Shown here in pieces: positions 7,989 through 8,209 of a DNA stretch of 64,000 nucleotides (within the stretch, counting starts at the first letter, position 1; every line of letters begins with the position of its first letter). Source of the DNA: Escherichia coli (GTDB lineage: Bacteria > Pseudomonadota > Gammaproteobacteria > Enterobacterales > Enterobacteriaceae); assembly GCF_045037415.1 (NCBI RefSeq), contig NZ_CP173438.1, one strand, 5' to 3'. The position numbers and the translations under genes are program-made. The notes below the pieces were generated by a model. It had not been told where the DNA came from and did no database searches. It was given only the letters and a program-made list of their open reading frames with translations.

Positions 7989-8159
7989 ATGTTTATTGCC
8001 TGGTACTGGATTGTATTAATTGTTCTACTAGCTGGTGGCTATTTTCTTCATCTTAAACGTTACTGTAAAGCTTTTCGCCATGACAGAGATGCGCTGTTAG
8101 CTGCCCGAAGTAAATTAGATAAACGCTCCGATAAAGAAGTGTTTGAAAAGCATCAATAA
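7989..8159 (+). CDS. Hypothetical small membrane protein, 56 aa from the ATG (single predicted TM helix then charged tail)
   Basis: ORF track 7974..8159; AAGGTGA Shine-Dalgarno-like sequence 5-8 nt before the ATG; product MFIAWYWIVLIVLLAGGYFLHLKRYCKAFRHDRDALLAARSKLDKRSDKEVFEKHQ; followed by a strong hairpin. Confidence 0.4.
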   Translation: MFIAWYWIVLIVLLAGGYFLHLKRYCKAFRHDRDALLAARSKLDKRSDKEVFEKHQ

Positions 8160-8175
8160 TACCTTTAATAACGAT

Positions 8176-8209
8176 ACAGATGTTGCCTTTAGCAATGGGC
8201 AACATCTGT
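8176..8209. terminator. Bidirectional terminator (12-bp stem ACAGATGTTGCC / GGCAACATCTGT) between the small ORF (+) and zupT (-)
   Basis: Perfect 12-bp inverted repeat with 10-nt loop followed by a T-rich tract; lies between convergent stops. Confidence 0.55.

Follow-up and report, generated by a model that had tools for sequence, protein, structure and literature searches.

A probable divergent allele of yqiD beside zupT in Escherichia coli strains that carry a fimbrial operon

RESULTS

The window analyzed here is a 64,000-nucleotide stretch of Escherichia coli DNA (assembly GCF_045037415.1, contig NZ_CP173438.1), in which a short open reading frame lies between a fimbrial operon and the zupT gene. 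The fimbrial operon is a four-gene chaperone-usher cluster on the minus strand (2438 to 7410) and consists of genes for a subunit (6847 to 7410), an usher (4240 to 6777), a chaperone (3484 to 4233), and an adhesin (2438 to 3487). It sits between ribB and the unit that contains the short frame and is not part of that unit. The frame itself is on the plus strand and, according to the window sequence and the list of open reading frames, starts with an ATG at 7989 and stops with a TAA at 8157 to 8159, such that the 56 codons plus TAA span 7989 to 8159 and encode MFIAWYWIVLIVLLAGGYFLHLKRYCKAFRHDRDALLAARSKLDKRSDKEVFEKHQ. An earlier note on this DNA, made from the sequence alone, had pointed to a 56-codon gene preceded by a Shine-Dalgarno sequence, and both statements stand, as translation of the frame returned exactly the peptide quoted there and AAGGTGA is found at 7977 to 7983, 5 nt before the ATG. 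The longest mechanical reading frame begins upstream at a TTG (7974) and would give 61 amino acids, but that version was rejected because the extension is not conserved and a 1-nt indel lies between the TTG and the ATG in K-12. RefSeq also places the start at the ATG at 7989. Short frames are common in the neighborhood, with 42 of at least 30 amino acids in 3.5 kb, and an open reading frame of such size in AT-rich DNA, taken alone, proves nothing.

The same note described the gene as unannotated-looking, a description that public records contradict: RefSeq annotates the frame as WP_001296421.1, and its K-12 orthologue is the named, experimentally detected yqiD. In genomes identical to the window, such as that of strain Nord8, the frame is the coding sequence of WP_001296421.1, "hypothetical protein," with the same coordinates, and it is located between a "fimbrial-like protein" gene and a convergent zupT. 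In a RefSeq copy of the identical locus (L001), positions 3590 to 3760 equal 7989 to 8159 of the window. The corresponding position of K-12 MG1655, between ribB and the convergent zupT, is occupied by yqiD, the product of which is the 56-amino-acid WP_000469266.1, "protein YqiD." UniProt lists the K-12 protein as YQID_ECOLI and the exact window protein as "DUF4051 domain-containing protein." We note that the naming is inconsistent, as the PGAP annotation reads "protein YqiD" for the K-12 type and "hypothetical protein" for the window type, while UniProt applies DUF4051 to both. The 56-amino-acid K-12 YqiD, from the zupT/ribB interval, has been detected by immunoblotting of a chromosomal SPA-tagged version and was also found by tetracycline ribosome profiling, and the authors of that work reported that the small proteins they detected, YqiD among them, were mostly abundant when expressed from their chromosomal genes in LB (VanOrsdel 2018, PMC6001520). 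A 2026 paper gives the yqiD locus identifier as b4756. Most papers that mention "yqiD" concern the unrelated yqiD/ispA of B. subtilis, and the searchable literature reports no function, partner, or phenotype for YqiD.

Three features place the window protein in the YqiD/DUF4051 family. It is similar to K-12 YqiD over its full length (64 to 69% identity over 56 amino acids); its gene occupies the orthologous position, convergent with zupT and on the ribB side, a gene order seen in at least 30 loci; and an alignment of 18 homologues contains an N-terminal transmembrane helix together with the motif K-R-x-C-(K/R)-A-(F/Y)-R-(Q/H)-(D/E)-R-(D/E)-A-L. A phmmer search of 5.8 billion proteins matched the K-12-type cluster at an E value of about 1e-15 to 1e-16, and phmmer and profile searches with the window protein gave matches only within the YqiD family. 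A Pfam-A scan gave no DUF4051 match and nothing below an E value of 0.1, the model being possibly absent from the scanned release, and across Pfam-A, NCBIfam, and PADLOC only insignificant matches to the transmembrane segment were found (MerE, DUF2621, and the "HYxxLL" family). A sequence profile search of the PDB likewise returned only insignificant GapR/UPF0335 matches (E value of at least 0.027). Taken together, the degree of identity, the zupT-convergent position, and the annotation of identical genomes mean that the gene is neither unannotated nor new, yqiD having been discovered and validated in 2018 and the present copy being annotated already. We consider it very likely that the window gene is a translated orthologue of yqiD; the translation experiments concern the K-12 allele, and the evidence for the window allele is evolutionary.

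To survey the gene across species, a degenerate DNA pattern for MFIAWYWIV was scanned over one genome per GTDB species. The scan yielded 18 loci, from E. coli, another Escherichia species, at least 10 Citrobacter species, and Intestinirhabdus alba. When other fetched loci from Escherichia, Citrobacter, and Intestinirhabdus were added, an intact frame of 56 or 58 codons was present in 28 of 28. The Nei-Gojobori method gave a dN/dS of about 0.06 for codons 1 to 42 (range, 0.04 to 0.13 where dS was measurable), with pS reaching 0.7. Conservation and dN/dS were the comparisons that the earlier note had proposed for this gene, and both the uninterrupted frame and the low ratio speak for coding. A per-codon table illustrates the pattern: R30 is invariant and is encoded by CGG, CGC, AGG, CGA, and CGT, and the invariant R33 and L36 each appear with four codons. 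Synonymous variation is reduced in the first 11 codons (TTT in 22 of 22, GCC in 21 of 22, and GTA in 18 of 22), which fits constraint on the translation initiation region. The tail, codons 43 to 56, is almost unconstrained, with a pN of 0.56 relative to K-12. Comparative sequence analysis thus strongly supports a protein-coding frame under strong purifying selection, and because the tail is almost free to vary, only two thirds of YqiD looks functional.

At the protein level, seven homologues from Escherichia and Citrobacter share 25 invariant residues. When 1.84 billion cluster representatives were searched exhaustively with a profile, only 21 matched, and these include more distant homologues of 53 to 74 amino acids that the source databases assign to Enterobacter sp., Kosakonia, Phytobacter, and Atlantibacter. 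When the distant homologues are included in the 18-homologue alignment, M1, W5, A28, and R30 remain invariant, and I3, W7, R24, R33, and A35 are nearly so.

Within E. coli, yqiD exists as two diverged alleles. Megablast found region 7400 to 8300 in 5,423 of 5,426 complete genomes, and in 5425 of the 5426 yqiD is present once, always in the same syntenic place. A blastn search with the yqiD unit (7870 to 8215) identified the window-type allele, at 95% identity or higher, in 992 of the 5,426 genomes (about 18%), including IHE3034 (98.3% identity); the genomes without it carry the K-12 type, annotated yqiD. Identity between the window and K-12 varies along the locus, being 81% in the upstream region (7870 to 7988), 75% in codons 1 to 42 (7989 to 8114), 44% from codon 43 to the stop codon (8115 to 8159), and 53% in the spacer and hairpin (8160 to 8220). 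On the downstream side, the convergent neighbor zupT (8221 to 8994, minus strand) is 95.7% identical in nucleotides and 100% identical in amino acids to K-12, and the RibB protein is also 100% identical. Synonymous sites in codons 1 to 42 are saturated between the two alleles (pS = 0.70). About 990 to 1,000 genomes that match the window-type allele also match DNA left of 7870 (megablast bands of more than 80% identity), from which it appears that this allele is inherited together with the fimbrial insertion. In a 2025 preprint (10.1101/2025.06.10.658842), yqiD is one of four genes for which an expression difference between isolates was consistent across a GWAS, a promoter model, and GFP reporters. 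The GFP constructs included the upstream region of the window allele type: the reverse primer for "yqiD-MT" matches the window allele at 7998 to 8019, and the WT primers match K-12, such that the two types apparently differ in promoter output. We conclude with good confidence that the window gene is the divergent yqiD allele of strains with a fimbrial insertion between ribB and yqiD and that it forms a monocistronic unit of about 340 bp.

Some further features of the two alleles were observed. The window yqiD (7870 to 8220) and its K-12 counterpart (L002, 3001 to 3346) have diverged to the level that separates Escherichia from Citrobacter while being flanked by genes for 100%-identical RibB and ZupT proteins, and the divergence is bounded sharply at 7870 and at the shared hairpin. 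One recombinant database protein (P0017) joins a window-type N terminus to a K-12-type tail, and several deposited E. coli variants (P0011, P0037, P0038, and P0060 to P0062) are frameshifted or truncated after the transmembrane helix or in the tail.

The left boundary of the unit coincides with the end of the fimbrial-side DNA. The window can be aligned with K-12 up to 2382, two bases short of the end of ribB (1731 to 2384, including the stop codon), and again from 7870 onward; the insertion spans 2385 to 7869 (5.5 kb), where K-12 has only about 145 bp. The placement of the gene at the edge of AT-rich fimbrial-side DNA, as first proposed, is therefore borne out by the point at which K-12 homology resumes and by a GC content of about 26% over 7400 to 7990. 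A link to the fimbrial operon itself is not supported, as the same gene and upstream region are found beside zupT where ribB or assT lies upstream and the fimbrial operon is missing.

The surrounding DNA is variable in several respects. In the intergenic region between the fimbrial operon and yqiD, GC skew is strongly positive over 7500 to 7800, reaching +0.54, and the stretch from 7411 to 7735 differs between otherwise similar strains, with some genomes matching only from 7736 onward. On the far side of zupT, dsbI, dsbL, and assT, which encodes arylsulfate sulfotransferase, lie at 9971 to 13139 (minus strand) between ygiD and ygiC and are missing from that place in K-12. In Citrobacter, Intestinirhabdus, and two metagenomic lineages, dsbI-dsbL-assT is found on the opposite side, directly upstream of yqiD and divergent from it, and because the block is on different sides in different genera, it has moved around the zupT-yqiD pair. 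Two metagenome assemblies (L030, 3951 to 4112, and L031, 4001 to 4162) carry a distant YqiD homologue of 53 amino acids between assT and ygiC, and zupT and ygiD are missing from the locus. This homologue keeps the proximal upstream block (…ATGTTAAAATTTAAGG…), without the palindrome described next.

Two conserved blocks were identified upstream of yqiD. The distal block is a 16-bp palindrome, TATGATCGAAATCATA, at 7870 to 7885, which is the first conserved block of the unit and a candidate operator. Its core, TATGATC[G/A]AAATCAT (7870 to 7884), is the same in all 19 of the upstream regions aligned, which come from Escherichia, Citrobacter, and Intestinirhabdus; a few taxa differ at the 16th base. 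The window contains a single copy of the palindrome, and a literature search with its sequence found no paper. The blastn breakpoints with K-12, L007, and C. rodentium all fall at 7870, and conservation starts at that position whether ribB, assT, or the fimbrial operon lies to the left. A distant homologue in a protein cluster labeled Enterobacter sp. (L028) keeps the palindrome in part, as TATGATCGGTATCA. The proximal block (7930 to 7988, plus strand; 19 taxa aligned) runs from about −58 to the ATG and contains TTAACG (7944 to 7949), an invariant and extended −10-like TGTTAAAT (7965 to 7972), and the Shine-Dalgarno sequence. Over its 119 nt, the upstream region resembles K-12 far more closely than the tail and the spacer do (81% against 44 to 53% identity). 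As it is more conserved than the synonymous sites of the coding region, the upstream region is under selection as regulatory DNA.

If TGTTAAAT is an extended −10 element, the leader would be about 10 nt long; alternatively, transcription could start around 7920, which would put the palindrome at about −41.5. The half-sites of the palindrome, TGAT-N4-ATCA, resemble the consensus of the FNR/CRP family, TTGAT-N4-ATCAA, which we offer as a lead only. A promoter scan was uninformative, with 9 sites against 6.6 expected, and its best match (10 of 12) lay within the conserved block in minus-strand orientation, so this block may serve either strand. The putative leader (7920 to 8010) showed no structure beyond that of shuffled sequences (z = +0.5), and a permissive Rfam search of 7400 to 8300 (E value of 1 or less) gave one chance match only (rli61, E = 0.43), outside the yqiD feature. 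A 10-nt inverted repeat (7939 to 7948 and 7966 to 7975) was dropped as a candidate RNA element, as it is not kept in K-12.

A stem-loop separates the stop codons of yqiD and zupT. The earlier note had described a perfect 12-bp hairpin followed by a T tract. The hairpin is as described, with arms at 8176 to 8187 and 8198 to 8209 that are 100% complementary and enclose a 10-nt loop, but the sequence after the stem (CATTATCATCTTTAACC) is only T rich and not a canonical tract. The hairpin (8176 to 8209) folds at −21.8 kcal/mol with a z score of −6.3 relative to dinucleotide shuffles, and it folds well on both strands. As measured against intrinsic terminators, a stable GC-containing stem-loop directly follows the stop codon, and the stretch 3′ of the stem (CATTATCATCTTT) falls short of a U tract of at least five T residues in 8 nt; a terminator scan of both strands of 7400 to 8400 called no terminator. 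The K-12 allele has a proper T run after the stem (TGTTGTTTTT). Stems homologous to that of the window are present in K-12, in an 80%-identical Escherichia variant, and in some Citrobacter copies, and three of the pairs change on both sides yet stay paired across alleles and species. In species of the C. freundii group, a nonhomologous hairpin, also strong, takes its place. No hairpin is present in C. rodentium, one C. amalonaticus strain (AUH_CA_2023_1), C. sedlakii, or Intestinirhabdus, the stop codons of which are about 25 to 30 nt apart. Based on its position between convergent stop codons and its good folding on both strands, we conclude that the hairpin probably acts as a terminator in both directions, for yqiD and for zupT, and that its U tract is weak on either strand.

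The product is predicted to span the membrane once. Residues 2 to 20 have a mean Kyte-Doolittle hydropathy of 2.16, and the 12 residues that follow the hydrophobic helix include five K/R and two D. AlphaFold2, run with the 18-sequence alignment, modeled a single continuous helix over residues 3 to 54, with pLDDT values of 83 to 87 in the transmembrane part and 57 to 69 in the tail. The resulting layout of an N-terminal hydrophobic helix (2 to 22), a conserved basic juxtamembrane segment (23 to 42), and a fast-evolving charged tail is strongly supported. According to the positive-inside rule, the basic side of a transmembrane helix faces the cytoplasm, and the five K/R after the helix thus point to an N-out/C-in insertion in the inner membrane. 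The single-pass protein with a charged cytoplasmic tail that had been proposed for this gene is supported by these predictions, which give one N-terminal hydrophobic helix with positive charge after it; the regulatory role suggested with it, and a connection to zinc, are conjectural. We consider it likely, on the strength of these models, that the window YqiD is a bitopic inner-membrane protein.

DISCUSSION

The yqiD unit (7870 to 8209) opens with the palindrome and the conserved upstream region that it heads, continues through the Shine-Dalgarno sequence and the 56 codons, and closes with the stem-loop that it shares with the convergent zupT. In the protein, the transmembrane helix and the membrane-proximal cytoplasmic helix may together present a specific surface to which a larger partner in the inner membrane binds. 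Two observations suggest such a surface: residues 1 to 11 are invariant in Escherichia, Citrobacter, and Intestinirhabdus, and KRYC(K/R)AFR(Q/H)DRDALL has been kept through many synonymous changes. Small bacterial membrane proteins are known to bind larger partners, as in AcrZ-AcrB, MgtS-MgtA, and KdpF-KdpABC. By analogy, we tentatively favor a role for YqiD in modulating a membrane partner, a reading that may well be wrong.

The most obvious candidate partner is the neighbor, and YqiD could be a dedicated modulator that binds the zinc importer ZupT and tunes its activity or stability. Precedents for small proteins paired with transporters include MntS/MntP, MgtS/MgtA, and KdpF; moreover, yqiD is convergent with zupT at a distance of about 30 to 100 nt in nearly all loci, those of Escherichia, Citrobacter, and the distant homologues among them, and this adjacency is kept despite a changing neighbor on the opposite side (ribB, assT, or the fimbrial operon). 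The convergent orientation, however, means that yqiD and zupT are not cotranscribed, and the L030/L031 lineage keeps yqiD beside ygiC where zupT and ygiD are absent. The phylogenetic distributions also differ: zupT is much more widespread than yqiD, for which the profile search found only 21 matches in 1.84 billion representatives, with named members from few enterobacterial genera. Finally, ZupT is 91 to 100% conserved where YqiD is 60 to 72% conserved, and so the two do not coevolve, and the synteny may simply be ancestral. We therefore consider a dedicated ZupT modulator unlikely.

Three other explanations were considered. A membrane-damaging peptide of the type I toxin kind, checked by an RNA, would likewise be small, begin with a hydrophobic helix, and be encoded by a stand-alone gene in AT-rich intergenic DNA. 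Type I toxins, however, are typically patchy and multicopy, and yqiD is single copy at one fixed position in 5425 of 5426 genomes; no antisense or adjacent small RNA family was found by Rfam over 7400 to 8300 and no structured leader was predicted (z = +0.5), and the part of YqiD that is conserved is the polar juxtamembrane segment. K-12 YqiD is, moreover, one of the proteins found mostly at high levels from the chromosome in LB (PMC6001520), and together these points make a toxin very improbable. The idea that YqiD regulates or assists the adjacent fimbrial operon draws on the position of the gene and on the co-occurrence of the window-type allele and the fimbrial insertion in about 990 to 1,000 genomes. 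K-12-type E. coli, Citrobacter, Intestinirhabdus, and others, however, have no fimbrial operon at this place and still carry the gene together with its upstream region, and the border of the conserved unit falls exactly at the start of the fimbrial-side DNA. We accordingly give this idea scarcely any weight. Last, the frame could be a chance one within DNA conserved only as a noncoding RNA or regulatory sequence, given that short frames are frequent (42 in 3.5 kb) and that the upstream noncoding block is itself highly conserved. That reading is refuted for practical purposes by codon-wise change, saturated synonymous sites, 25 invariant residues, the lack of any frame break in 28 loci, and detection of the K-12 protein (PMC6001520).

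A more elaborate version of the preferred reading is that YqiD is a tightly regulated modulator, controlled by a dimeric regulator that binds TATGATC(G/A)AAATCATA, and that the two alleles differ functionally, either in expression or in interactions mediated by the tail. We regard this combination as improbable. If it were true, the consequence would be a lineage-specific membrane phenotype, possibly exerted through ZupT, with one of the alleles coinherited with an ExPEC-type fimbrial operon. More immediately, RefSeq names only the K-12-type allele, which leaves the orthologue in about 18% of complete E. coli genomes under the label "hypothetical protein." The interest that remains is mild and lies in the invariant upstream palindrome and in the deep split between the two alleles, which goes together with the fimbrial insertion. 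The comparative data mark which two thirds of YqiD are constrained, and the invariant upstream palindrome provides a concrete handle on what YqiD does.

The locus can be compared with known systems. The ExPEC Yqi/EA-I fimbrial cluster measures 4,975 bp (Antao et al. 2009, PMC2771359), and the gene order of subunit, usher, chaperone, and adhesin and the span of 4,973 bp match in the window, a likeness drawn by order and span. The stem-loop resembles bidirectional intrinsic terminators in that it is GC containing, is positioned midway between convergent stop codons, and shows compensatory changes; it differs from them in lacking a run of five or more U within 8 nt on either strand and in being missing from four related taxa. 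AcrZ, MgtS, and KdpF are like YqiD in architecture only, namely, in size class, the single transmembrane helix, the stand-alone short gene, and conservation of the transmembrane and juxtamembrane parts, whereas yqiD has neither sequence similarity to them nor cotranscription with a partner gene. The closest counterpart is K-12 YqiD. The window protein is 64 to 69% identical to it in amino acids and about 77% in nucleotides, with a tail that is unrelated in sequence, and the window copy has a weaker U tract and a fimbrial operon instead of ribB upstream. What the two have in common is a length of 56 amino acids, a locus on the ribB side that is convergent with zupT, identical residues 1 to 11 and 17 to 26, the upstream palindrome and proximal block, and a homologous hairpin.
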